From: Bdellovibrionales bacterium
GTDB taxonomy: Bacteria > Bdellovibrionota > Bdellovibrionia > Bdellovibrionales > UBA1609
Length of the DNA: 64,000 nucleotides
Assembly (NCBI GenBank): GCA_965261545.1
Contig: CBDHDF010000011.1
Span: 864,001-928,000, forward strand
Direction: 5' to 3'
The position numbers and the translations under genes were made by a program. Shown here in pieces: positions 6,413-50,406 of this stretch. Positions within the stretch are counted from its first letter, which is position 1. Every line of letters begins with the position of its first letter. The notes below the pieces were generated by a model. It had not been told where the DNA came from, ran no database searches, and saw nothing but the letters and a program-made list of their open reading frames with translations.

Positions 6413-7155
6413 GGGATCGAGTGGAACGGGGGAATTGCACCCCCGAGCCCTCACAGATCCCCGCAGGACATTCTCATGTCACGGGGCTCCTATCCTAACA
6501 ACCTACGGAGGGGCCACTCGCCAATGGACAAACAGTTGTGGCCTTGCACGGGCAAAGCTCTTACACCATTTGTAGGCTCGACGGAAGCTTCCTCTCAAGC
6601 TTTTGAGGGTTCGGCGCGCCCATCTCATGAGTGCTCCGTTGAATCTGTGAAGAACAATGTACATTGCTGAAGGGGAGAACTTACCATAGTAATTGTACCA
6701 CCCTCTAAGAATGGGATTCCACTTCTTGGCAATATCTTCCATGGAGAGATGACTGCTCAAACGCACCTTCTCCTTGCGAATTTTATCATTCATTGCTTTC
6801 TTGGCCTTATTGCTTACGGCAGGAAGGTAATTTATAAAATCCTACCCCCTATAATTCCTTGCTGGCCTCGGCTTAAAGGTGTAACCGAGAAAATCGAAGT
6901 TGACTTTCTCTCCTTTCAACCTGCGTCTTCCTGACATTTGGCAATGAATAATGTGCGTCTTCTTTGGGTGAATTTCCAACCCCACTTCGCAGAGCCTTTC
7001 CTCCAATGCCCGTCTCATTTGGCTGGCTTCCTTCTTTGTGCGGCAGTGAATGACAGCGTCATCTGCGTACCGTACAAATGGGGATTCAGGATGATTCCTG
7101 GCCATCCATATATCGAAGGCATAGTGGAGAAATAGATTACTTAGCAGGGGTGAAG

Positions 7156-9100
7156 CAACTCCCCGGACACAATAGACAACTTTTCCATTGAAATTTCCAT
7201 AAATATATATAATCATTCACTTTATGCAATTGGTCGTAAATATGCTCGCTATCGTTGGCATCCACCTGAGGATTCTTCCCATTTAGCTTCGAACCATAGT
7301 CAAAGGAATGATAATGGCCCACCAAACAAAACATCAAAATCCATGGACAGCTCAGTTAAAAAGTGTCTATCAAAGCGACCAAGCCACACGGGTTCAACAG
7401 ACATACGAAGTTGTTGTTCCAAAAATAAAGAAACAATTAAAGCAGAAAGTAAAACAACAGAAAATAATGGAGGTTAAAAATGGAAACATCAGTAGCTCTT
7501 TATTGTCGAGTGTCCTCAGATAAACAAGCTCAAGAGGGAACCATTGATTCACAGATTTCTAGTCTTCACGATTTCGCTAAGGAACACAGCTTTTGTGTAG
7601 AGGAGGATCTTATATTTACGGATAATGGTGTGAGTGGTGCCACCCTTGTTCGTCCTGCTTTAGACTCCCTTCGCGACAAAGCTTTTTCTGGGGAGGTTAC
7701 AAAGGTACTTGTGTTATGTCCAGACAGATTAGCTCGTAAATATGCCCATCAATTGATTCTAATTGAAGAATTTCAGAGGCTAGGTGTTGAAATTATTTTT
7801 TCTAATAGAGATATTACAAATTCACCCGAAGATCAGCTTTTGCTACAAATACAAGGAGTCATTTCAGAATATGAAAGAGAAAAAATTATGGAAAGAAGTC
7901 GAAGGGGTAAACTTCAAAAGGCTTCTAAGGGCTTTGTTAGCGTTTTATGTGGAGCTCCCTATGGTTATATATATATTCCGAAAGCAGACTCCGCTGACGC
8001 ACGATATGAGGTCCATCCAGAAGAGTCTAAAGTTGTTAAAGATGTTTTTCAAATGTATTGCCGAAACAAACTAAGTATTGGAGCAATTGCAAAGGAATTA
8101 AATATAAGGGGGGTGCCTACTAAAAAACAACAAGGTATTTGGGAGCGTTCAACTGTTTGGTGTATGCTTAAAAACCCCGCTTATTATGGACAAGCTGCTT
8201 TTAGAAAGACTATCCAGGTAGAAAGGTTGCGTCCAACCAAGTTAGCAAGAGACAATAATTTTTATCCAAAAAATCCTAAATCAAGCTCTTCCGATCGAAA
8301 TAAAAAGGATTGGATATATATTCCCGTTCCATCTATAATTTCTTCAAAAACTTTTCAAGATGCATCCAGTCAATTGGAAACTAACAAAAAACTTTCCCCT
8401 CGGAATAATAAAAAATATGAGTATTTGTTAAGTGGTCTTTTACGATGCAAAGAGTGTGGTTATTCGATCTATGGCAAACCCGCTTCTAATTCAAGGTATA
8501 AGCGTTGTTATTATCGCTGTATGGGACAAGATGGTCATAGATGGCCAGCTAAAGGTAGAGTTTGCTCATCTCATCCCGTAAGAGTTGAAGTTTTAGATGA
8601 CTTAGTTTGGGAACAAACAGTTAAATTACTTGAAAATCCTCAGGCAGTTATAGATGAGTATACAAATAGAATTCATGAGCAAAAAGGCCAACAACAATCA
8701 TTGGAAAAATTAATTGCAAAAAAGGCTCAGGAGATTCGTCAAATAACACATGAAAAGGAACGTCTCTTGGATCTTTATCAAAATGGAACTCTAAATCTAT
8801 CAGAAATAGAGTCACGATTAAAAAAAATAAGAGGCAAAATAAAGCAACTTGAAAATGAAAAGCAATCTTTAGAGTATGAGCAAAGGCAAGAAGGACAACA
8901 ATTACAGCTTGTAGATCAACTCCAAGAATTCCAAAAAAAAGTGAGTGCCAACTTAAAGGTATTGAGTTTTGAGCAAAAAAAGGAGATTGTAAGGCTACTG
9001 GTAAAGGAGGTTGAGGTGAACATTAAGACAAGTGAAATTGTGGTTCGACACGTTGTGCCAACATCCAAAAGTTTGCCATTGTGTCCGGGGAGTCACAACT
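7156..9100 (+). mobile_element. Minimal serine-recombinase element 1
   Basis: CAACT core at 7156-7160 and 9096-9100; 16-bp perfect inverted repeat at 7158-7173 and 9078-9093; removal restores GTPQGSVASPLL. Confidence 0.92.
7308..7523 (+). CDS. Small protein overlapping the LSR start (possible accessory factor)
   Basis: AAAGGA RBS; overlaps recombinase ATG. Confidence 0.55.
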   Translation: MIMAHQTKHQNPWTAQLKSVYQSDQATRVQQTYEVVVPKIKKQLKQKVKQQKIMEVKNGNISSSLLSSVLR

Positions 9101-9102
9101 GA
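7480..9102 (+). CDS. Large serine recombinase
   Basis: YCRVSS catalytic motif, DRLAR, recombinase domain, LSGLLRCKECG zinc ribbon, coiled coil. Confidence 0.95.
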   Translation: METSVALYCRVSSDKQAQEGTIDSQISSLHDFAKEHSFCVEEDLIFTDNGVSGATLVRPALDSLRDKAFSGEVTKVLVLCPDRLARKYAHQLILIEEFQRLGVEIIFSNRDITNSPEDQLLLQIQGVISEYEREKIMERSRRGKLQKASKGFVSVLCGAPYGYIYIPKADSADARYEVHPEESKVVKDVFQMYCRNKLSIGAIAKELNIRGVPTKKQQGIWERSTVWCMLKNPAYYGQAAFRKTIQVERLRPTKLARDNNFYPKNPKSSSSDRNKKDWIYIPVPSIISSKTFQDASSQLETNKKLSPRNNKKYEYLLSGLLRCKECGYSIYGKPASNSRYKRCYYRCMGQDGHRWPAKGRVCSSHPVRVEVLDDLVWEQTVKLLENPQAVIDEYTNRIHEQKGQQQSLEKLIAKKAQEIRQITHEKERLLDLYQNGTLNLSEIESRLKKIRGKIKQLENEKQSLEYEQRQEGQQLQLVDQLQEFQKKVSANLKVLSFEQKKEIVRLLVKEVEVNIKTSEIVVRHVVPTSKSLPLCPGSHN

Positions 9103-11305
9103 ACCCTGTGGCGTGCCCTTTGTGCGAGGTTTTTCCTTTCCGTTGTGACTCATGGGAGCTTCCAGCCACCTTTTGATGTATAAAAGAACCCATTTATCTT
9201 GGATGTGAAACTCCACCGCTTTTAAGAGCAAACTCCAGGAAATATTATCGAATAATCCTTTGATGTCAAATTCTAGGACCCATGAATATTTCCAGCATCT
9301 CTCTCGCACCTTTCCCACAGCATCGTGTGCTGACTTATTGGGACGGTATCCGTAAGAGTTTGGATGAAACAAAGGCTCTAGCTTTGGCTCAATAAATCGT
9401 CTGACCACCGTTTGCGCAACTCGGTCTCCCACTGTGGGAATTCCAAGCATTCGCACTCCGCCATCTTTCTTTGGTATGGGCACCGCTTTCACTGCGGGAG
9501 GGAAGTAACTTCCTGAAGCCATTTGATTCCAGATTTTATAGAGATTGTTTCTCAAATCCTGACCAAAATCATCCAAGCTGACTCCATCCACTCCACCAGC
9601 TCCACCGTTGTCCCGTACCTCCAAATAGGCGTACTTCACCATGTTCTTTGCAATGCCCTCAAAGGGCTTTGTTTTAGGTTGTGTAGACTCTATGCTTACC
9701 TCCTTTTTCAGTTTCTGCATCTAACCTACGTTTAGAATGTGCCCCCTTCGCCCTACACCTATTACAGTGTAGCTTTGCTACTACGAGACACTCTGCCCCA
9801 CCATCTGGCATCGGCATTTGAGTCTTGTGGATTACCGCCCACTCGAACTCCTACCTTAACATCCAGAGGATGGTTCCCAAGTTTCCTGAAAGAGCCTAAG
9901 CAAGATTCTTGTCACCTCAGTACCGGAGATCGCCCAACCAGTAAACAGGTTGCCGCTGGGCTTATCGTAGAGTGATACATTCTCTAGTTTCGACCTCAGT
10001 ATTAACTTTTCGATATGTCATCAGTGATTCTTTTGCAATCAACTCTCTTGCTCGTACCTGATGGTTTATACCACCTTTTCCTCACCCCCGATGGGCGGAT
10101 CAAAACCATCCATTTGTGGGCTAACAAAACCATCCATTTAAAAACTTAATATCTGACAAGGCGTATTATAGAATACTTCCTAGAAAACAACCTGGGAGGG
10201 AAGGATGAACGTCTTGAATAAACAAAAACAAGAAGAGATATTAACATTAATTATAGCAGGTCGCTCCTTTCGTGAAATAGCGAAAAGGCTACATGTCAGT
10301 CGATTTACAGTTTCAGAATATGCTAAAGCCCATAGTGTCATTGCGAAAAAAGGGCGCACAGGAGGTGTGGAGCCAAAGTCTCTACCTTTTTCAGGTCCCC
10401 CTGAAGCAGAACCATCATCTTCAGGGTCCCTTGAGGTTTGCTCTGTAGAGTCTTCAAGTGCTTCTGTAATCCAGATCCAAGAGCCCGATGAAGTTTCGGT
10501 TTCCTCTACAGAGGCCAATCAGCGGACACTCCTTGGGGAATCAGGCCTAACACCAGTAGAATCTCATTCAGCACCCCCTGTGGAGCCATGCTCAACTTCT
10601 TTGGCCGTGTCTGATTTGGTTAGCATGGGCCCCAGTGTTTGCCAAAAGCCCCCATCTCCAACCACCACCATGGTGGAAACGAATTTAGCTGCTCCTACAG
10701 AAACTGGATCCACCGACTGTGTAGCTCATTTAATCGAACGAGACAAGCCAGTTCCACCCTCACCTATGGATACAAAGCAGGCTTTTGCCAATGAAAAGCC
10801 ACCTACTCTTTCTTCTTCGGAATTAGGTTTTGTTGTCCCCATGGAAGTAACAAAACCCTTTGAGACAGCACCACCTGAATTGAAAAAGTCTCTTACTGAC
10901 CAGGCTTCCCCAAAGCACCCTCAACGATCTTCCTACCATCAGTCGGCTTGTGAGCCCCACAGGGTTTGGATTGAAAATCAGGCTTTGGATTTAGAGCGCA
11001 ATCGAATGGCCATCTACCAAGATTTGGTGGAGAAATTTGGTTTTTCTCACTCCTAACACAGCGTGAAAAAATTTGTAAGGAAGCTGAAGAAGAGTACCCC
11101 CAAACGCTATGATCGCTTGGATTTTCCCCCGGAGAGGAAGCCCAAGTGGATTATGGCCAAGGGGCTCTGACTATTCACCCCCGGACAGGCAAATATAGGC
11201 GGCCTCGCCTTTTTGTGATGACCCTCAAGTACTCTCGTGCCTCTTTTCGCAAGGTTGTTTGGAAGTCCAGCCAAGAGACGTGGAGCAGACTCCATGAGGA
11301 GGCTT

Positions 11306-14609: not shown

Positions 14610-14971
14610 CGAGTCCATTACTTAATACCCCCGTCAACGACAGAGGTTTTAGAGAGCTAAGGGTCACGGACCCCTCCCATCCCCTTTATAGGAAGTCATT
14701 CAAGGTGATTTCCATACCTAAAAATCAGAAAAAATCTACTTTTGCTTTTGTTCAATACAAGAACCACATGACGCTACGCATACCATTGGCTTCTACCAAT
14801 CTGAACCCCAATCTCTACGATAGGCAGGCCCCAAGCAAACTTGGTATAGTTGCAATTCAGGAGCTAATTTCACTGACTCAACAACTGGAAGAGCAACTAT
14901 GTCAATTACACCAAAAGATGTCTGGCCAAGACTGCCAAAAGAAATTCAAAAGCAAGTCATCAAAGACTTAA
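14610..14971 (+). CDS. Body of an attP-spanning small gene (start codon at 17054)
   Basis: Frame open from the left junction; RVTDPSHPLYRKSFKV motif lies upstream of the first in-frame GTG. Confidence 0.65.
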
Positions 14972-15135
14972 CTTTAGCCATTGAGGAGATTATATATGAA
15001 AACATCGGAATTGATTACACCTATTCACTTAAAGAGAAAAGCCATAATATACATCAGACAGTCGACCCCTCAGCAAGCCATCAAAAACAAAGAAAGTCTC
15101 GACCTTCAATACTCACTCAGGCAAAGAGCTACTGA
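14899..15135 (+). CDS. Small protein overlapping the LSR start
   Basis: ATG with GGAAGAG upstream; VWPRLPKEIQKQVIKDL. Confidence 0.5.
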   Translation: MSITPKDVWPRLPKEIQKQVIKDLTLAIEEIIYENIGIDYTYSLKEKSHNIHQTVDPSASHQKQRKSRPSILTQAKSY

Positions 15136-17041
15136 ATTAGGTTGGCAAGAAGATAGTATTGAAATTGTCGATGATGATTTGGGGATCACAGGAAGTAGTA
15201 TACAGTTTAGAGAAGGCTTCAAGAATATCCTTGCAGAAGTGACCTTGGAAAAAATTGGTATTATTCTATCGTACGATGTCACTCGTCTATCTAGAAACTG
15301 TACGGACTGGTACCAATTACTTGATCTGTGTGCTTTTAAGAATTGCCTCATTGCTGATAGAGAGTCTATTTATAACCCTTCTAATGTTAATGGAAGAATG
15401 TTACTCGGGTTTAAAGGTCAACTCTCAGAAATGGAATTATTTACGATACGCAATAGATTAACAGCAGGTCTTCTCAACAAAGCCAAGCGAGGAGATTTAG
15501 CTCTTAAATTACCAGTTGGTTTTATTCGAACAGAACAAGGTAAAGTGCTAAAAGATCCAAATAAAGATTTACAAGATCGCATAAATTTAGTATTTACTAT
15601 ATTCTTAAAACTGAAATCAGCCGGTAAGGTGTCGCGATTTTTTAACGATAACAACCTCTTACTTCCAAGAGTTGATTTTGTAAAAAGTATTCATTGGAAA
15701 AAAACATCCAAGGCAGCCATACTTTCTATTTTGAAGAATCCAGCTTATAGCGGAACTTTTGTATATGGCAAAGCTGAATACCGTAGAAAAGACTTAGCTG
15801 GAAAACTTAAGCGTACAAAGCTTCCACTTAATGAATGGAAAATTGTTGTGAAAGATAAATATCCTAAATATATCGATTGGAATACATTCTTAAAGATACA
15901 AGAAATTCTAAAAGACAACTACACTGAATATACTCGTAATAAAACAAGAGGCATACCTCGCCCTGGTAAGGCCCTCTTACATGGGATAGTCTATTGTGGA
16001 GAATGTGGCCACAAAATGTCAGTGCAGTATAAAACAGCAACTCGATACTTATGCAACTATCTACGCCAACAACATCGGGAACCTACTTGCCAATTCATTC
16101 CTACAGATCCAATCGATGATTATGTAGTAAACGCTTTTTTTAAGGTTCTTTCCCCTGTCGAGCTAGACTTGTATGCCAAGGCTTTAGAAAATAAGTCAAA
16201 AATTGACCAAGAGGTTTACAAATCACACATTCAGCAAATTCAGCGTTTAAGGTATGAAGCTCAACTGGTAGAAAAGAGGTATCGCAAAGTAGACCCTGAG
16301 AATAGACTTGTTGCAGATGAATTAGAAACACAATGGGAAGAGGCTTTAGTAATACTTAAAAAAGCCGAAGATCACCTAGAGAGGGTTAAGAATGAACAGC
16401 GTATTCCAACTGTGATCTCTCAAAAAATGAAAAGAGAATTTTCAGATTTGAATCAAAAACTACCTTCGCTATGGGAGGATAAGATATTGACCAAAGACAT
16501 GAAAAAGAAAATTCTTAGAACATTGGTTGAAAAGGTTGTCATTCACAGAAAGAAAAGAGATATGGTTGCACTGAGAATTGTTTGGATTGGAGGAGATACA
16601 ACAGAAGCTAGCATTCCAATCAAAGTTGGATCTTTTGATGAACTGTCATCTTCTGAAACGATAAAGAAAATAATTGCGCATCAGGTCAAGCTTGGGGTGT
16701 CTGATGAAGATATTGCCAAACTATTGACCCAAAAAGGATTCAGATCACCAATGGATACCACTTTTCTCAGAAATACTGTGAAGTCCTATAGACTAAACAA
16801 TAAAATCTATCGGAATCGAAAGCACTCTTTTCCGACCAAAGTCGAGGGAAGCCTCACAACATCTCAAATTGCAGCACTTATTGATGTTAAAGTTCATTGG
16901 ATTTATCACCATATTAAACAAGGGAGGATCATTGTCAAAAAACACGAGAAAACAAAGGCTTATCTCTTTCCAGATAAGAAAAAAACCATATCTGACTTTA
17001 AAAAACTTAAGTCCGGATCAATTAAAAAGCTACGTTACTAA
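14996..17041 (+). CDS. Large serine recombinase with C-terminal HTH-like extension
   Basis: YIRQST, TRLSR, LLHGIVYCGECG; GAGGAG RBS before ATG 14996. Confidence 0.95.
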   Translation: MKTSELITPIHLKRKAIIYIRQSTPQQAIKNKESLDLQYSLRQRATELGWQEDSIEIVDDDLGITGSSIQFREGFKNILAEVTLEKIGIILSYDVTRLSRNCTDWYQLLDLCAFKNCLIADRESIYNPSNVNGRMLLGFKGQLSEMELFTIRNRLTAGLLNKAKRGDLALKLPVGFIRTEQGKVLKDPNKDLQDRINLVFTIFLKLKSAGKVSRFFNDNNLLLPRVDFVKSIHWKKTSKAAILSILKNPAYSGTFVYGKAEYRRKDLAGKLKRTKLPLNEWKIVVKDKYPKYIDWNTFLKIQEILKDNYTEYTRNKTRGIPRPGKALLHGIVYCGECGHKMSVQYKTATRYLCNYLRQQHREPTCQFIPTDPIDDYVVNAFFKVLSPVELDLYAKALENKSKIDQEVYKSHIQQIQRLRYEAQLVEKRYRKVDPENRLVADELETQWEEALVILKKAEDHLERVKNEQRIPTVISQKMKREFSDLNQKLPSLWEDKILTKDMKKKILRTLVEKVVIHRKKRDMVALRIVWIGGDTTEASIPIKVGSFDELSSSETIKKIIAHQVKLGVSDEDIAKLLTQKGFRSPMDTTFLRNTVKSYRLNNKIYRNRKHSFPTKVEGSLTTSQIAALIDVKVHWIYHHIKQGRIIVKKHEKTKAYLFPDKKKTISDFKKLKSGSIKKLRY

Positions 17042-18335
17042 GGGGGTATCAACATGAGTGATCAAATATTCATCATCCAACGGATGCATCGCTTTTATAT
17101 GACTGCATAAGAGTTACAGAAAGAGAATTTAAAAAAGTTCGTAAAAATGTCATGAAAGATTTTTGGCGACTTATTTCAAGAGAAGATCTTAAGAGAGCAA
17201 AAACCTTGCTTTACAAAATTAATAATTCCAAAAATGATGCGGAAAGACTACCTTGCTATAAGGAGCTTTTAAAAATCGCTACCAAATTGAACAAAGGATT
17301 ACCTGATACCATCAGAAAGATAAAAAAAGAACAAAAATGTGTGAAGATGAATGCTTTGAAAAAGAGTCTAAAACAGTTAGAAAATGTTGCCTTCTACCTG
17401 GAAAAAATCATCTTTCAAACTCAAAAAAGAGTTATTGAGGGGAAAAAAGTATCTTCTGAAAAAAAGGTCCTATCCATCTTTGAACCGCATACAGACATTA
17501 TTGTAAAGGGGCAAAGAGAAGTCGAGTTTGGGCATAAAATCTTTCTGACCTCAGGGCAAAGCAACATGATTTTAGATTGTCAGATCCCTGATGGCAACCC
17601 CGCAGACTCTGATATGTTTTTAAAAGTTATGAATTCAGTGACACAAACCTATGGGGCTTGCCCTGTAAAAGTAAGTGCAGATGGTGGGTTTGCTTCAAAA
17701 GAAAATCTTGAAGAGGCCAAAGAGATGGGGGCTAAAGATGTTTGCTTCCCAGAAAAAAAAGGAATGAAAATATTAAAGATGGTTAAAAGTGCTTGGGTCT
17801 TTAAAAATCTTCTCAATTGGAGAGCCGGAATAGAGGCTGTTATTTCATTCCTTAAGAGATGTTTTGGTATGAGAGTTGCTTACTGGAAAGGGCATGATGG
17901 TTTTAAGAGGTATGTAAAGAATGCCGTTTGTGCCTATAATTTTGTTGTCTTGGCAAGACATGAATTATCAACTGTCACCTAAATTTATCCATTAGGAATA
18001 ACAGCAATGGACCAGGTCGAAGGTGCTAAAATCTTCCAAAGGTAGGGGTGCGTCTTCAAATCGAAAAAACTAGGGCGCAAGTCGCTTAAAGACCTTTTTC
18101 CCCTTAATCTGTAGAGTTTGTGTGGCAAATCTCCAACTCTCACTCCCCCATTGAGGCATTGGGAGGCTCAATGGGGAGTGTCAGAGAACAAAAAATGGGC
18201 CTTTCTGGACAGAAACTAAATACTGTTCATACGTCTTTTTTGTTTTTTCGGCAACTCTAGCCGTTGCAACATATTCATCCGCCATCGCTGGAAGTCGGAG
18301 TTTTTTAAGAGAACCTATAAGTTCTTCGTGATTCA

Positions 18336-25195: not shown

Positions 25196-26683
25196 CTACT
25201 CCTTAGTAGGAAATAATTTTCTTGATAGTAAATGCTCTTGCTCAATGATTGATCCTAGGTTTAGTCTTATTCGAGGTAGAGCAGATTTTCTACCAAAATT
25301 AAAATCTATGACTCGACCATTATCACTTCTCAAGATTTCATCTCCAGAGCTTAAAGTCAAAGAAAATAGATCAAAGAATCTCCGCGGACCAACTCCTGTG
25401 AATGGTTCAAAGTGTAGCTTGTTTTTCTCATTCTTATCTTCTGAAATAGCATCATCATGCAATTTTTTAGCCAAACTTTTAGGGTAAGGCTCTACATAAA
25501 CGACTCTCTTAATTCCTGCTGAAATTATATGCTTCGCACAGTTGTGGCATGGGTAAGTTGTTGTAAATAATGACAACCCTTTGCTCTGTATTCCCAACCG
25601 GTTCATCAACAAAAGTGCAGCCATTTCAGCGTGAACAGCACGCCCATATTCTGTTATGCCTTTGAATTCGCTGTCATCAATTTCTCTTTTTATGATATCC
25701 TTAACTTCTTTAATTTTATTGCCCGCTATTTCTTTAAGCTCGCTGTCTGATGAGACCCCTTTAATTATTTCTTCTACGATCTCCTCTCTCCTTTTTTTAT
25801 TTGAATCATATCCTCTAGCGTAATCTCTTTGGTCCATCCCTGTAAGATAATCATCTGACCAATATTGGCCACCACCAAACTTTGGAGCGTCATTTGCTCC
25901 TTGGGCAACAATTTCCCCCTCTGAAGTAACAATGACTGCCCCCACTTGTCGAGACAAATCAGCAGATCTTAACGAGGCTGCGTACGCATGAAACATGGCA
26001 TACTCATCTTTATTAGGTGTGTGATATGGATGGCCAAATATTAAATCTATAAATCTAGATAGTTCTCTATCTAACCTAGTTTTATTATCAATTGGAATAA
26101 ATACATCAGACTTATGAAATGAATCACTCACCTTTTGTCCATATTTTTTTATGTTATCTTGCTCTAATTTTAGTAATTTCTTTGCATTATTTTCAGCAAT
26201 ACCTTCTTCCTTGTTAAGGTAATTTAGCCTCTCAGGTATATCACTATACAATCCTATTAAGAAGAAACTACTCCCATAGAGAGAGCGTATTTTTTCAATT
26301 TCTTTGTAGTGCTTAAATCCATTTATAAGGAACGCAGTTTTTTTGTTTCTCTCAGATTTGTCTTCCCTTAAAGAGTAGATACTAGAAATCGCTACTTCAG
26401 CTAAATAATCAGGCTTATTTTCATTTCTTAACTTATCTCCCATTTTGATTAATTCTTTCTTTCTCTCAAAAGGGGTCTCTGGAATTTTACCTTTGTCTTC
26501 TTTATACTTGTCCTCTAAAAACTTACTTATTTTAATGGGCTCAAGAATATAATTGTAATCTTTCAATATATTCTCTAGGGAATTTGTGAATTTTTTTACA
26601 TCACAACCCATTGGTGCAATGAGGCCCAAGTATATGTCGTTGTCATCGTCGTTGTTTTCTTTACTTCTCATCTTGTTGCTCAT
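25196..26683 (-). CDS. Anti-phage-type dCTP/dCMP deaminase (P-loop-like plus deaminase domains; AvcD-like)
   Basis: GLIAPMG N-terminal motif; RSADLSRQVGA, HAE, PCHNC, YVEPYPKS. Confidence 0.92.
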   Translation of the reverse strand: MSNKMRSKENNDDDNDIYLGLIAPMGCDVKKFTNSLENILKDYNYILEPIKISKFLEDKYKEDKGKIPETPFERKKELIKMGDKLRNENKPDYLAEVAISSIYSLREDKSERNKKTAFLINGFKHYKEIEKIRSLYGSSFFLIGLYSDIPERLNYLNKEEGIAENNAKKLLKLEQDNIKKYGQKVSDSFHKSDVFIPIDNKTRLDRELSRFIDLIFGHPYHTPNKDEYAMFHAYAASLRSADLSRQVGAVIVTSEGEIVAQGANDAPKFGGGQYWSDDYLTGMDQRDYARGYDSNKKRREEIVEEIIKGVSSDSELKEIAGNKIKEVKDIIKREIDDSEFKGITEYGRAVHAEMAALLLMNRLGIQSKGLSLFTTTYPCHNCAKHIISAGIKRVVYVEPYPKSLAKKLHDDAISEDKNEKNKLHFEPFTGVGPRRFFDLFSLTLSSGDEILRSDNGRVIDFNFGRKSALPRIRLNLGSIIEQEHLLSRKLFPTKE

Positions 26684-27029: not shown

Positions 27030-27230
27030 ATGTTCTTTGAAAATTTAATATGGATGACGACAGAAGAAGCGGCTCGGTATTTGCGTAAAAGTGCCAATGC
27101 TTTAAGAATCATGGTTTATAAAAGATTCTTAAGGTTAGAAAATTTCGTCGAAGACTCTGCTTTTTAAGAGGAATGAACTGGATGCCTTGATTGAAACCTC
27201 ACTTATTAAAGGAGGTTATTGTTATGGCAG
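27030..27230 (+). pseudogene. Excisionase-like HTH gene, frameshifted
   Basis: WMTTEEAARYLRKSANALRIMVY followed by frame disruptions; directly upstream of the integrase. Confidence 0.65.
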
Positions 27231-28390
27231 TTAGTACATACAAGGAAAATGGTAGAGAATTTTATTGTGTTTATGTTCAAGCAAAAGGAAAAGAGGATAA
27301 AAATTTGAGACTTCAACGTAAGAGAAAGAAAATTGTTTCTTTTCGGGAGGCTCAAAAACTTGAAAAAGCTCTTTTCAAAGAAGTTATCGAGCAGATTGCA
27401 AAGATTGAAGGTCGCGGGTTGACTTGGCGAGAGATTATCGACAGATGGGAGATTAAAGCCCGTCGAGGGGATCTCGGAGACAAGTATCAAAACAATTACT
27501 TGATTCAAACTCATGTGAATCGGTTGAACGAATACACAAAGATTTGGCTTCAACGCAGAGCTTCTGATTTGACCAAAGGTGATGGAAGGCAGGTTTTAAA
27601 TGCTGCCAAAGCTGATGGTGTAACAGGAAGTTCTTTGAAGAAAATCAAAACTTCAGTGAATGTTGTTTTTAACTGGGGAATCGAAGAGAAGTATATTGTT
27701 GGTACATCTTCAACCCCAGTTGAGGGTCTTTGTGTTTCAGACAAAGTGGAGAAGGTTCCTCAAATTTTAACTCTTGAGGATATTCGGACTTTGCTTGGAA
27801 GGGCGTGCAAACTTGACCACCCTTGGTATCCCATCTGGGCATTTGCTTTTTTAACTGGTATGAGAAGTGGCGAGCTTAAAGCCCTACAGTGGAAGGATAT
27901 AGACCTTGAGAAGCGTATAATAACGGTTTCCAAGTCCTATAGCCCCCATTTAAAGGGTATTAAAGGCACAAAGGCTGGGTACTGGAGAAATGTTCCCATT
28001 TCACCGGAACTTGAAGGGATTATTTCCGGCTTAAAAGAAGGCCAGAAACTAACACCTAAAGACTTTGTGTTACCTCGTCACTACACTTGGACAAATGGGC
28101 AAGCTGGGGAGGTTCTCAGAGGCTTTTTGAAAGAGCAGGGGATAGACAAGGATATTGTTTTTCACACGCTCAGAGCTTGCTTTGCGACTCATATGCTAGC
28201 TCAGGGGGCCAATCAAGCCACTGTTATGAAAATCGGTGGATGGAAAGATATAAAGACTTTCCAGATTTATGTTCGATTGGCTGGTGTTGAGGTCCATGGG
28301 GCAACAGATATTTTAAGTGTCTTGCCTAAGATTCGACCTGTCACAACTGATAAAGTTGTGAGTTTAAGTGACCATGCGAGGAGAGCCTAA
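27224..28390 (+). CDS. Tyrosine integrase
   Basis: TGMRSGE, K, HTLR, GGW, Y; AGGAGG RBS. Confidence 0.95.
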   Translation: MAVSTYKENGREFYCVYVQAKGKEDKNLRLQRKRKKIVSFREAQKLEKALFKEVIEQIAKIEGRGLTWREIIDRWEIKARRGDLGDKYQNNYLIQTHVNRLNEYTKIWLQRRASDLTKGDGRQVLNAAKADGVTGSSLKKIKTSVNVVFNWGIEEKYIVGTSSTPVEGLCVSDKVEKVPQILTLEDIRTLLGRACKLDHPWYPIWAFAFLTGMRSGELKALQWKDIDLEKRIITVSKSYSPHLKGIKGTKAGYWRNVPISPELEGIISGLKEGQKLTPKDFVLPRHYTWTNGQAGEVLRGFLKEQGIDKDIVFHTLRACFATHMLAQGANQATVMKIGGWKDIKTFQIYVRLAGVEVHGATDILSVLPKIRPVTTDKVVSLSDHARRA

Positions 28391-28891: not shown

Positions 28892-30700
28892 ATGAGAAAA
28901 GTAGCGCTTTATTGTCGAGTGAGTACCGATGAGCAGGCAAAGAATAAGGAAGGGTCTATCACTTCTCAAGTTCAGCGACTTCAAATGAAAGTCAATGAGA
29001 AAAACTCCTATGAGAATGGTCAATGGGGAAAAGTGGTGGGTATCTATAAAGATGAAGCTTATTCCGGGAAGAATACAGACCGCCCTGAATTTCAACGCAT
29101 GTTGACCGATGTAAAAACACAGCGAGTGAATACCATCCTTATTACGGAGTTGTCTCGATTGAGTCGCTCAGTCACCGATTTTTTAAGTTTCATTGAAGAG
29201 CTTGAAGACCATGGTTGTGACTTTATTTGCCCTCAATATGATTTTGATACCACAAGTCCCGCAGGTAAAGTCTTTATGACTATCATTATGGCCCTCGCCC
29301 AGTTTGAGCGAGAATTGACTGCCGAAAGAATTAGAAATAACTTTCACGCCCGTGCCTTACGGGGGTTGTCCAATGGGGGAGTGCCTTTTTTGGGCTATGA
29401 TAGAGACCCTACTCAGTCAGGACAACTTTTGGTGAATACCCATGAAGGGGTGATTGTAAAGAAAATATTTGACTTATACTTAGAGGGTAAGAGTCTTTCA
29501 GAATCGGCAAAATATCTCAATGAGGAAAACATTAAAAATAAGTCATGGATAAGCAAAGATGGAAAAGCCTGCGGAGGGCAGCCTTTTCGTGCCACTTCGG
29601 TTTTGCGAACACTGACCAACTATGCCTATATTGGAAAGCGAGAAGTAAACAAGAGAAACAAAAAATTAGTCTCGGAATCTCTCAAGACTGAAGAACAATA
29701 TACTCTTGTTGATTCCAGTTGGAAGGCCATTATAGACCCTGAAACTTTTCAAAAGGCCCAAACAAAGCTTAATATCAATAAGAAAGTTAAGAAGCCCATG
29801 AACTTTGATTTTTGCTATTCAGGCATCATGGTATGCGACGAGTGCGGAGCGCCTCTTTCTGGTAAGACGGGGACAGGTAGAAATAGAATCTATTTCTACT
29901 ACGGGCACAATAGAAAGACATCCTGTAAGGTTCAAAGATATGATGCTGAGGCTCTAGAAAAGGTTCTTCGTAGACAGCTTTTCACCCTTATCAACAATGA
30001 AGCCATGGGCAAGCAATTCATTCAAGCTTTGTCTGAACAGGTTCAAGGCTCTTCCAAAATCTCGGAGGCTCTCCTCAAAAAGACCCAGGAGGATATTGGA
30101 AAACGCCACTCTGAAAATGAGAGACTTATCAATCTTATGGCCGATCATGCAGAAGCCCAAGGGCTAGATGCCCTGCTGGGCCGTATCAAGAAAAATGAGG
30201 CCGAGATACTTGAGTTGAAAGCTCAACTGTCAAAACTTGAGGAACAGCGCATCATAGAAGCGGCGCAACCCACCATCGACCCACAGTTTATTCTCTCTGG
30301 CATCAAAAAGTTTCGCGAAGATGGGTTTCGCAAAGCTAAGGTTTCCAAGAAAAGAGCTATTGTGCAAGATGTTATCAAGACGATTCATGTCCATCCCGAT
30401 AATGTGATTCGCATTGATTTTTGGACCAGTGAGAGTCAGTCTAGCGTTGCTGTAAAGGATGCATTTCAATCAGGAGTTGTTCTCCCTTTTCAGCCCCTAG
30501 GTAGGCCACTTGAGGCATCTTTTCGTGAGAATGCCTCTCGTGAGGATAGGTTTTCCGATATAAAAAGAGCTGCAAATTTAGGTGTCTATATTCTCCCACA
30601 AGGGAGAATGACGCCCAAAAGCAGCCTCGGCGGCAGTTTCGGGCCTTCTCTGGCCCACGGTTCGTCCAGCGTTGTAACTGGTGGAGGTGGTGGGAATTGA
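28892..30700 (+). CDS. Large serine recombinase reading into the tmRNA 3' end
   Basis: YCRVST, SRLSR, CDECG; last codons antisense to ssrA. Confidence 0.95.
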   Translation: MRKVALYCRVSTDEQAKNKEGSITSQVQRLQMKVNEKNSYENGQWGKVVGIYKDEAYSGKNTDRPEFQRMLTDVKTQRVNTILITELSRLSRSVTDFLSFIEELEDHGCDFICPQYDFDTTSPAGKVFMTIIMALAQFERELTAERIRNNFHARALRGLSNGGVPFLGYDRDPTQSGQLLVNTHEGVIVKKIFDLYLEGKSLSESAKYLNEENIKNKSWISKDGKACGGQPFRATSVLRTLTNYAYIGKREVNKRNKKLVSESLKTEEQYTLVDSSWKAIIDPETFQKAQTKLNINKKVKKPMNFDFCYSGIMVCDECGAPLSGKTGTGRNRIYFYYGHNRKTSCKVQRYDAEALEKVLRRQLFTLINNEAMGKQFIQALSEQVQGSSKISEALLKKTQEDIGKRHSENERLINLMADHAEAQGLDALLGRIKKNEAEILELKAQLSKLEEQRIIEAAQPTIDPQFILSGIKKFREDGFRKAKVSKKRAIVQDVIKTIHVHPDNVIRIDFWTSESQSSVAVKDAFQSGVVLPFQPLGRPLEASFRENASREDRFSDIKRAANLGVYILPQGRMTPKSSLGGSFGPSLAHGSSSVVTGGGGGN

Positions 30701-31034
30701 ACCCACGTCCATAAGTCTTTCACATTAAGGCAAAGCTACATGCTTAGTCTATGTTTTATAGGTGACCTATAGACCTCCACAGACAAAGTGCTATAAGTCC
30801 CTCCTCCAGTGATTTAAGTTGCAATTCCTGGAGAAACCAACTTGCGACCGAGGTAGTTTGAGTGACATCTCTCCACACCCACTACCTTAGTGCGAAGAGA
30901 CGTAGCTGAACCGATTAGGCAGCTAGTGCATAGTTGCTATTATCAACTATAGTTTTACCCGTTTTGAAGAGGACCTCGGGTGCCTCTGCATGCTCCTTAA
31001 GCTTCAATACCCATGTCGAATCCATGTCACCCCC
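30679..31034 (-). ncRNA. ssrA: tmRNA; predicted tag (A)DNSNYALAA
   Basis: 5' GGGGGTGAC..GGATTCGAC, 3' GGTTCAATTCCCACCACCTCCACCA, tag frame ending GCACTAGCTGCCTAA. Confidence 0.95.
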
Positions 31035-48260: not shown

Positions 48261-50406
48261 GTTCCTGTCCAGGGAAGAAAGTTAAGTAGTTTTAAGTATT
48301 TACATGCCTTCCCTTTAGATTTTATGCTTTAAAATGGAGTCCATCAAACATAATCCGTGTAAATTCAGTTACTTACATAAAACGGAAAAATAAAATAAGT
48401 TCCCCCCCCCTCTCTTGACGAACCTTTCACAGCCCCTCCCTTTCAGTGACTTATGTGGCTATCAACTGGTTACTTGATATGAGAGGAAGAGTTGGATCAA
48501 CCTGTGTTTCCACCGTGGTGATTTCAAACCTCCTTCAGGGAAATAACATTACGTTGCGCATCAACTTCAAAAAATACTTGACGTGTTTTTTCAGAGAAAT
48601 AATTTTTGATATTTTATTCTTCATTTATTTTTTATGTAGGTTTTAGGAGGCGTGGGAACCTCTCTATGAGGTAGAATTCTTATCCATGTTCTCCGAGAAC
48701 CTCTCTGATTTTTTTCTTCTTAAAAGACATCCTTGCTCACTTTTTTCCCTCAAAAAAACGTATGTTAATATAAAAATTAAAGAGAAACTTTCACCAAAGG
48801 GGGGACTATGCGCCATTTGAAGAAGACACAGTTGGGACTCTTTTCCCAATATCCTAACCACCAACTCAGTACAGAATTGCAGCAAATTAATAACATCATT
48901 GATCGCCATCCAGAGTTTGCCCATATGGTTCATGAAGACCTTGTTAAAGAAAAGAAAGATTCTGGTGATATTGGTATGACATCGGAGCAAGTTCTCAAGG
49001 TGGCTATTCTTAAATCCATAAGAGGTCTTTCCTATCGTGCGTTAGCCTTTAATCTTGTCGATTCAGTATCCACCAGAGCTTTTCTGGGCCTTGAATTGGA
49101 AGAAAATTACGCTCACTCCACCTTACAGGACTTGATTGTTCAAATAAGTGAAGAAACTTGGGGAATTATTAGCGCCTCTTTAGTTTCAGATGCAAGAGAT
49201 CAAAAGATTGAGCCGTGTAAGAAAATGAGATTGGACAGTACAGTGACGAAATCAAATATTCATCATCCAACGGATGCATCGCTTTTATATGACTGCATAA
49301 GAGTTACAGAAAGAGAATTTAAAAAAGTTCGTAAAAATGTCATGAAAGATTTTTGGCGACTTATTTCAAGAGAAGATCTTAAGAGAGCAAAAACCTTGCT
49401 TTACAAAATTAATAATTCCAAAAATGATGCGGAAAGACTACCTTGCTATAAGGAGCTTTTAAAAATCGCTACCAAATTGAACAAAGGATTACCTGATACC
49501 ATCAGAAAGATAAAAAAAGAACAAAAATGTGTGAAGATGAATGCTTTGAAAAAGAGTCTAAAACAGTTAGAAAATGTTGCCTTCTACCTGGAAAAAATCA
49601 TCTTTCAAACTCAAAAAAGAGTTATTGAGGGGAAAAAAGTATCTTCTGAAAAAAAGGTCCTATCCATCTTTGAACCGCATACAGACATTATTGTAAAGGG
49701 GCAAAGAGAAGTCGAGTTTGGGCATAAAATCTTTTTGACCTCAGGGCAAAGCAACATGATTTTAGATTGTCAGATCCCTGATGGCAACCCCGCAGACTCT
49801 GATATGTTTTTAAAAGTTATGAATTCAGTGACACAAACCTATGGGGCTTGCCCTGTAAAAGTAAGTGCAGATGGTGGGTTTGCTTCAAAAGAAAATCTTG
49901 AAGAGGCCAAAGAGATGGGGGCTAAAGATGTTTGCTTCCCAGAAAAAAAAGGAATGAAAATATTAAAGATGGTTAAAAGTGCTTGGGTCTTTAAAAATCT
50001 TCTCAATTGGAGAGCCGGAATAGAGGCTGTTATTTCATTCCTTAAGAGATGTTTTGGTATGAGAGTTGCTTACTGGAAAGGGCATGATGGTTTTAAGAGG
50101 TATGTAAAGAATGCCGTTTGTGCCTATAATTTTGTTGTCTTGGCAAGACATGAATTATCAACTGTCACCTAAATTTATCCATTAGGAATAACAGCAATGG
50201 ACCAGGTCGAAGGTGCTAAAATCTTCCAAAGGTAGGGGTGCGTCTTCAAATCGAAAAAACTAGGGCGCAAGTCGCTTAAAGACCTTTTTCCCCTTAATCT
50301 GTAGAGTTTGTGTGGCAAATCTCCAACTCTCACTCCCCCATTGAGGCATTGGGAGGCTCAATGGGGAGTGTCAGAGAACAAAAAATGGGCCTTTCTGGAC
50401 AGAAAC
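48261..50406 (+). mobile_element. IS-C, intact copy
   Basis: TIRs; TSD TATCTA. Confidence 0.95.
48808..50172 (+). CDS. IS5/ISNCY-like transposase
   Basis: DSTVTKSNIHHPTD, EFGHK, ADGGF, WRAGIEAVISFLKR. Confidence 0.93.
   Translation: MRHLKKTQLGLFSQYPNHQLSTELQQINNIIDRHPEFAHMVHEDLVKEKKDSGDIGMTSEQVLKVAILKSIRGLSYRALAFNLVDSVSTRAFLGLELEENYAHSTLQDLIVQISEETWGIISASLVSDARDQKIEPCKKMRLDSTVTKSNIHHPTDASLLYDCIRVTEREFKKVRKNVMKDFWRLISREDLKRAKTLLYKINNSKNDAERLPCYKELLKIATKLNKGLPDTIRKIKKEQKCVKMNALKKSLKQLENVAFYLEKIIFQTQKRVIEGKKVSSEKKVLSIFEPHTDIIVKGQREVEFGHKIFLTSGQSNMILDCQIPDGNPADSDMFLKVMNSVTQTYGACPVKVSADGGFASKENLEEAKEMGAKDVCFPEKKGMKILKMVKSAWVFKNLLNWRAGIEAVISFLKRCFGMRVAYWKGHDGFKRYVKNAVCAYNFVVLARHELSTVT

Follow-up and report, generated by a model that had tools for sequence, protein, structure and literature searches.

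A minimal large serine recombinase element that preferentially splits group II intron reverse transcriptase genes at a conserved codon

What kind of element cuts the reverse transcriptase (RT) gene of a group II intron at one conserved codon, and does it do so elsewhere? The locus lies in a 64,000-nucleotide stretch of DNA from a Bdellovibrionales bacterium, C11:864001-928000 (hereafter the window, to which positions refer unless a contig is named), where an insert of about 1.9 kb carrying a large serine recombinase (LSR) gene divides such an RT gene. We consider it highly probable that the insert represents a family of minimal elements, the size of insertion sequences (IS), which are mobilised by their own LSR and insert at codon X of the motif P-Q-G-x-x-X-S-P in group II intron RT genes.

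The element proper occupies 7157-9094 on the forward strand (1938 bp, plus one 2-nt core; Table 1), and its GC content of 37% contrasts with 46-47% in the RT halves. These halves match positions 1-127 and 124-205 of RVT_1 and are followed by GIIM and then by the Rfam domain V/VI. Deleting 1940 bp in silico restores the RT frame through PQG, and an empty allele of the same intron in the same genome (C11:345 kb) reads GTPQGSVVSPLL. An initial annotation, made from the letters alone, had placed a 1.9-kb LSR element in the PQG motif of the RT; the ends, the domains and the empty allele agree with this, and its rebuilt attB correctly restored the frame, but the empty allele does not carry the ...VASPLL that it had read there. 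Compared with the empty copy, the RT 3' half of the window differs by one base over 739, and that base creates the in-frame TAG at 6842-6844. Public contigs from four runs of one sample, probably the source sample and so not an independent witness, also contain the joined empty site. It was the only joint listed there, and no free circle of the element was seen.

Table 1. Features of the interrupted intron and of the element within it (window positions).
Feature	Position	Strand	Basis
RT 5' half, ending at GTPQGSV	9095..9720	-	Domain search; junction reconstruction
RT 3' half (SPLLSNL, YADD, maturase domain), with premature TAG 6842-6844	6503..7156	-	Domain search; empty-copy comparison
Intron domains V-VI, intron 3' end	6416..6491	-	Rfam RF00029, 43.6 bits
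Host group II intron including insert, approximate; 5' end inferred	6416..10085	-	Contig loose ends 6416/10085, boundary sequence
Mobile element proper	7157..9094	+	Empty allele, sister copies in genome, GC contrast
Left crossover core GC	7155..7156	.	Empty site reads AC; family end geometry
Right crossover core AC	9095..9096	.	Genome copies; family end geometry
Left att arm; perfect 16-bp arm = 7158-7173	7158..7184	+	Inverted-repeat search; family geometry
Right att arm, within LSR coding sequence; perfect arm = 9078-9093	9067..9093	+	Inverted-repeat search; family geometry
Start-less frame, LSR C-terminal tail once ends are joined; conserved ~7157-7258 (NSPDTIDNF...GRKYARYRW)	7157..7477	+	Joined-end analysis
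Small ORF, 69 aa (71 from ATG 7308), overlapping LSR start; candidate directionality/accessory factor	7314..7523	+	Family conservation
LSR of 540 aa with S12 invariant; stop and final codon supplied by target DNA	7480..9102	+	Domain search, alignment

The ends of the element form a 27-nt terminal inverted repeat (89% matched) whose inner 16 bp are perfect, the top hit among 212 pairs found between 5000 and 11500, which confirms the palindromic character first proposed for the rebuilt attP. Each att site of the window consists of a 2-nt core with inverted arms on either side. The pentamer CAACT had been proposed as the core, and it does occur at both junctions (7156-7160 and 9096-9100, 1940 bp apart), but the true core is only 2 nt long, GC/AC. 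We rejected CAACT because family ends consist of an arm, one nucleotide and a 2-nt core, and because of this layout the 5-nt match must be partly coincidental. The two cores of the window are unequal, the left one being a single base away from the empty site. Between the ends lie only two ORFs and a tail frame; prophage genes are absent, and neither a conjugation module nor a rumA target is present. The small ORF and the LSR were thus rightly recognised as contents of the element, but the left end also encodes a tail for the recombinase, which brings the coding features to three. A promoter scan returned 11 sites, against 6.1 +/- 2.1 in shuffled sequences.

Whether this position recurs can be judged from relatives chosen without regard to their targets. 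Of 7999 proteins scored, 3782 match the recombinase at E 1e-30, and not all of these need belong to its family. Based on recombinase sequence alone, 170 homolog loci were picked, including the best 80 of 571 and the best 80 of 545; 21 had no usable end, which left 149, and 12 duplicate flanks were removed (loci L171-L187 are outside these counts). The 149 sampled loci gave 239 distinct flanks, and 193 of these consist of an RT half broken at this exact codon: 94 end in PQG-x-x and 99 start with x-SP, in exact register, and register controls shifted by 1-12 nt gave 0-3 matches. A looser pattern for the C-terminal half, which allowed up to 13 chance matches, was dropped, and the stricter pattern underlies all counts. 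At the level of loci, at least one junction falls exactly at the RT codon (PQG-x-x-/x-SP, the slash marking the cut) in 123 of the 149 with a usable end. This is the enrichment of homologous LSRs at RT PQG sites on which the initial annotation had staked its reading. Its wider idea of retroelement parasitism through a coding motif holds as a preference, since the remaining 46/239 flanks are non-RT and show a weak motif only.

The core covers bases 1 and 2 of the third codon past PQG and reads AT on the RT strand in 96/193 flanks. Insertion occurs in either orientation: where both ends were available (n = 102), 43 loci are sense and 27 antisense, with 15 non-RT, 12 flanked by two like halves and 5 mixed, so that the antisense arrangement expected at a broken PQG exists but the sense one was encountered as well. 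The two cores are equal in 50 and unequal in 20 of 70 matched pairs. Flanks have been swapped by recombination or misassembly in some loci, as the 12/102 with two N or two C halves indicate, and such swaps may inflate the number of core mismatches and thereby weaken the reading that mismatches are tolerated. The layout of the homolog ends in our matrix-based search is constant (arm, one base, 2-nt core), and a second arm type exists. C is found at +5 and +6 outward from the core on both sides of the target and in the att arm, in the target because these are Gly and Pro codons, and the shared arm bases may well drive recognition.

In the close clade (at least 49% identity), 20/30 flanks are RT PQG and 10/30 are not, and no RT flank was found at eight distant LSR loci with 24-37% or partial matches (L003-L008, L089, L090). 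The homolog records span many phyla. Bradyrhizobium elkanii USDA 76 carries the family, and on a complete Bradyrhizobium plasmid RT pieces flank the element on both sides; a match on a Pseudomonas plasmid has no RT annotation near the element. The viral contigs searched yielded 2 loci, at 30% identity.

The genome from which the window derives holds 10 left and 10 right ends, equivalent to 11 copies or part-copies, together with uninterrupted copies of all four resident intron RTs, and the element has moved within it. Subtype A (99-100% identical) has 6/8 of its ends at PQG in three different introns, the other 2/8 lying in a hydantoinase/oxoprolinase gene. Subtype B (97% in DNA, 95% in protein) is present in six copies, with 11/12 ends at a site in the fourth RT, RRVH/TGAY. 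A single genome therefore offers three kinds of target, namely RT PQG, a second RT site and the oxoprolinase gene, and targeting is preferential, relaxed and non-exclusive. A family-target matrix, which owes as much to conserved codons as to the preference of the recombinase, puts the empty PQG sites of RT4, RT1 and RT3 at ranks 1-6 of 4.3 million genome positions, whereas the subtype-B site ranks ~153,000 and the oxoprolinase site ~106,000. The PQG-equivalent sites of RT2 are filled in 0/9 cases. A distant RT of 353 aa (C4:59374-60432; C4:365-961), with YMDD and with PIGILTSQ replacing PQG, is not targeted by the element. At C7:146914-151825 and C10:793057-794991, the RT and oxoprolinase flanks are reciprocally exchanged, either through rearrangement between copies or through misassembly.

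The fourth intron (RT2), which hosts subtype B, homes into 23-bp repeats that end a multicopy IS21-type element. Arrays of this 23-bp tandem repeat hold tandem introns (C11:939.8-943.8 kb, C10:1010-1016 kb and others), and empty arrays also occur. Introns bearing subtype B occupy two types of repeat array and two different repeat units, and subtype B is present on both alleles of one intron SNP site, a pattern that retrohoming, recombination and IS transposition would all give. The simplest reading is that a single rare insertion was afterwards copied passively. What this genome adds to the family is filled alleles next to empty ones, insertions off target and a case of passive amplification in an intron.

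These data bear on how much of the RT enrichment reflects the recombinase itself. The element could instead be a relaxed serine transposon of the TndX/TnpX type whose copies are enriched in RT genes mainly because they survive, and are passively amplified, in harmless introns. The non-RT flanks with their weak motif fit such an account, as do the six subtype-B copies, which share a single poorly scoring site, in a multicopy intron homing into an IS21-type element. Survival, however, leaves unexplained why one exact codon is hit in hundreds of divergent RTs from many phyla, and in this genome subtype A reached PQG in three different introns; we regard the account as improbable. It is less probable still, and in our judgement very unlikely, that the LSR has been domesticated as a switch, inverting or reversibly excising the insert so as to toggle the RT for the host or the intron. 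Ends that are inverted repeats, both orientations, and a precise excision that would restore the RT frame are what such a switch would need, but a single genome has copies in a metabolic gene as well as in four introns, with empty alleles alongside, off-target copies and tandems are typical of selfish spread, and the RT of the window contains a further stop. Finally, the notion that the assembly merely joined an LSR repeat to intron repeats, for which one may cite several repeats frameshifted in the assembly, the swapped C7/C10 flanks and listed contig pieces that never span the full stretch, has a negligible chance of being right and is already refuted at the family level, because unrelated genomes show a junction identical to the base, as does a complete plasmid record in which RT pieces flank the element.

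The preferred reading, an LSR element directed to the RT codon, gains a further dimension from the recombinase gene. The 540-aa ORF matches Resolvase PF00239 (E 7e-32), Recombinase PF07508 and the Zn-ribbon PF13408; S12 is invariant across 30 aligned sequences, as are four Cys residues. The window LSR scores 42 bits against NF033518 (cutoff 110) and has no DUF4368 match at E 0.001. Its stop codon had been described as completed by the target; target DNA does supply it, but to the extent of the whole TGA and the last Asn codon. The stop is likewise missing inside the element in 95/97 distinct elements, and in 95/95 the junction is in phase. The frame that the gene would enter at the opposite end, the tail frame, has an early stop (within the first 18 codons) in 0/114 left ends, compared with 84 and 97 in the other two forward frames, and it varies most at third codon positions, so the tail is conserved as protein. 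As read from these sequences, the element ends form, once joined, a palindromic att site that lies within the LSR gene, and the enzyme gains a conserved C-terminal tail. Two subtype-A left ends in this genome have one extra A, which would put the tail out of frame.

Joined ends with read-through occur naturally in two tandems, L182 and L183, the only setting in which they were encountered, although contigs drop rare forms. A scan for the joined-end pattern gave 7 loci, 2 adjoining LSRs and 5 being lone palindromes. The latter, perfect and similar to a joined att site (L179-L181, L184 and L185, at 2501-2534), come from Actinomycetota MAGs, and no LSR or RT was matched within 2.5 kb of them. In L183 (200-4800), two different elements of ~67% protein identity lie head to tail within one RT PQG site, with CT as the inner and AT as the outer core. 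The predicted structure of the L183 LSR in its natural joined form aligns with solved LSRs over residues 1-526, in keeping with a recombinase domain, zinc ribbon and coiled coil, the tail lying beyond, and the LSR model compares with SPbeta 9y66 at Z 18.0, rmsd 14.6 and 476 aligned residues. The tail was modelled with one strand at low confidence (pLDDT 58 or less). In these models, the tail appears as an addition onto a complete LSR fold. A search for it in longer proteins gave 5 unscored candidates, which is weak evidence. On the opposite strand, an ATG within the element's left end is in frame with the downstream RT part (6842-7216, minus), and the subtype-B counterpart (C11:549444-550622) is a 393-aa RT lacking its N-terminus alone. 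This outward frame into the RT 3' half runs antisense to the tail frame and meets an early stop in 26/114 left ends, and we set it aside as a by-product.

A member of one small ORF family precedes the LSR in 133/133 left ends, the window included, and shuffled ORFs gave 0 matches to this family. The small ORF has no Pfam match, and no PDB match at E 0.001; its model is one helix, for which the best Atlas hit (0.78) is a lead only. When its complex with the LSR was predicted, the score was 0.60, against 0.00 for the best of 3 controls, with runs agreeing in at least 84% of contacts and a partner pLDDT of at least 57. The mark for this score is reached by 116/157 solved and 2/215 mismatched pairs, and the mark-passing pairs at 0.60 or under comprise 18 solved pairs and both mismatches; passes at 0.60 are more often wrong than right unless the pairing is likely beforehand. 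The prediction hints that the small ORF product, a candidate directionality factor, may bind the LSR. Longer family elements add an ORF resembling helix-turn-helix or ribbon-helix-helix proteins below Pfam cutoffs, which the window element lacks.

By analogy with other LSRs, the recombinase would act on both junctions to release a circle, which would then integrate at a new site. The Gly-Val and Ser-Pro codons flanking the target probably keep its DNA pseudo-palindromic and close in sequence to the inner att arm, and this likeness could allow one recombinase to serve very divergent introns. Since AT, the commonest core, is self-complementary, both orientations would be allowed. Mismatches in the core seem to be tolerated, which may widen the range and permit rare off-target insertions, and the small ORF product would probably set directionality. 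Insertion into an intron RT would spare host genes and let the element spread passively with the intron and with the IS elements bearing it; residing in an intron RT gene, it can be seen as a parasite of another genetic parasite. More tentatively, and with the odds against it, this hyperparasite might possess a state switch, in which the integrated form makes a tail-less LSR and the circle a tailed one, the tail setting direction or activity so that the element excises once and then integrates, while tolerance of core mismatches lets the att site take up the core of each target and the element rides on intron RNA by retrohoming in trans. The six copies of subtype B, all in one intron that occupies several positions in the host, would be compatible with the last step.

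The surroundings of the element are rich in mobile DNA, with IS21, IS66, IS4, IS256, IS1634 and ISNCY types in the window. The element had been called the second, divergent LSR element of the window; another one does exist at 14610-17066, but it is unrelated (24% identity), and the gene that it occupies encodes an IS transposase rather than an RT. It is 2457 bp long, encodes a 686-aa LSR with its stop inside the element and a 78-aa ORF, and interrupts an ISNCY-type transposase gene, an intact 454-aa copy of which lies at 48808-50172; all 9 left and 9/10 right ends of this element in the genome have the same flank. A third LSR (28892-30700, 602 aa, 26% identity to the first) overlaps with its 3' end the 3' end of a tmRNA gene (30679-31034, minus), near a tyrosine recombinase-like gene (27191-28390) and an anti-phage dCTP deaminase gene (25196-26683). 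This region is likely an island at tmRNA.

The family is likely a natural enemy of group II introns and may explain many of the broken RT genes in genomes. It also indicates that protein conservation can yield a DNA target common to many phyla. Its large size and many natural att pairs make it well suited to tests of how specific LSRs are, which cores they tolerate and what sets their direction. As stored in databases, LSRs of this family finish in junk derived from the target, and the tail encoded across the junction may be needed when they are tried as tools.

No description of the family was found in the openly accessible literature searched. With phage-type integrases (Bxb1, phiC31, A118, SPbeta SprA), the element shares the domain order, the fold, a 2-nt core in the att sites, a small neighbouring gene that may encode a directionality factor, and a target within a conserved gene. 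Unlike them, it measures 1.9-2.3 kb, carries no phage genes and has many divergent targets set by a codon motif; it also inserts in either orientation, its cores are often unequal and its att site splits the LSR gene. Phage integrases, according to the available part of one source, exchange efficiently only when the cores are aligned in parallel (PMC3783163). An att site in the 3' end of the integrase gene, with C-termini that differ between integrated and excised forms, is described for the streptococcal rumA ICEs (one serine integrase) and for the tyrosine integrase of phage Mx8, in the part of PMC4701971 available to us. The att site of the present element is placed likewise, in its recombinase gene; as far as that account goes, those systems are conjugative or prophage elements with a host-gene target, whereas this one is minimal, targets a retroelement and has a tail conserved as protein in 114 left ends. 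In TndX (Tn5397) and TnpX (Tn4451), one LSR uses several sites, with multiple copies, a short core and a circular intermediate. Like these and the multi-targeting clade of Durrant et al., as the accessible sections present it, the family uses several unrelated target genes (PMC10083194). DUF4368, found in 63% of that clade, is common there and not universal, in the same sections (PMC10083194); compared with these systems as described, the element lacks DUF4368, cargo and mobilisation genes and strongly prefers a single RT codon. The portions of that paper's text and supplements at hand name no RT or intron target, and unnamed table entries may include members (PMC10083194). IS607 elements also combine IS size with a serine recombinase, but the available excerpt describes a small TnpA whose DNA-binding domain is N-terminal, and elements that lack inverted repeats at their ends (PMC6188088), in contrast to the full 540-aa LSR and inverted arms found here. 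Elements driven by LSRs and split integrase genes are already known, and the family that targets an RT codon is a new variant among them.
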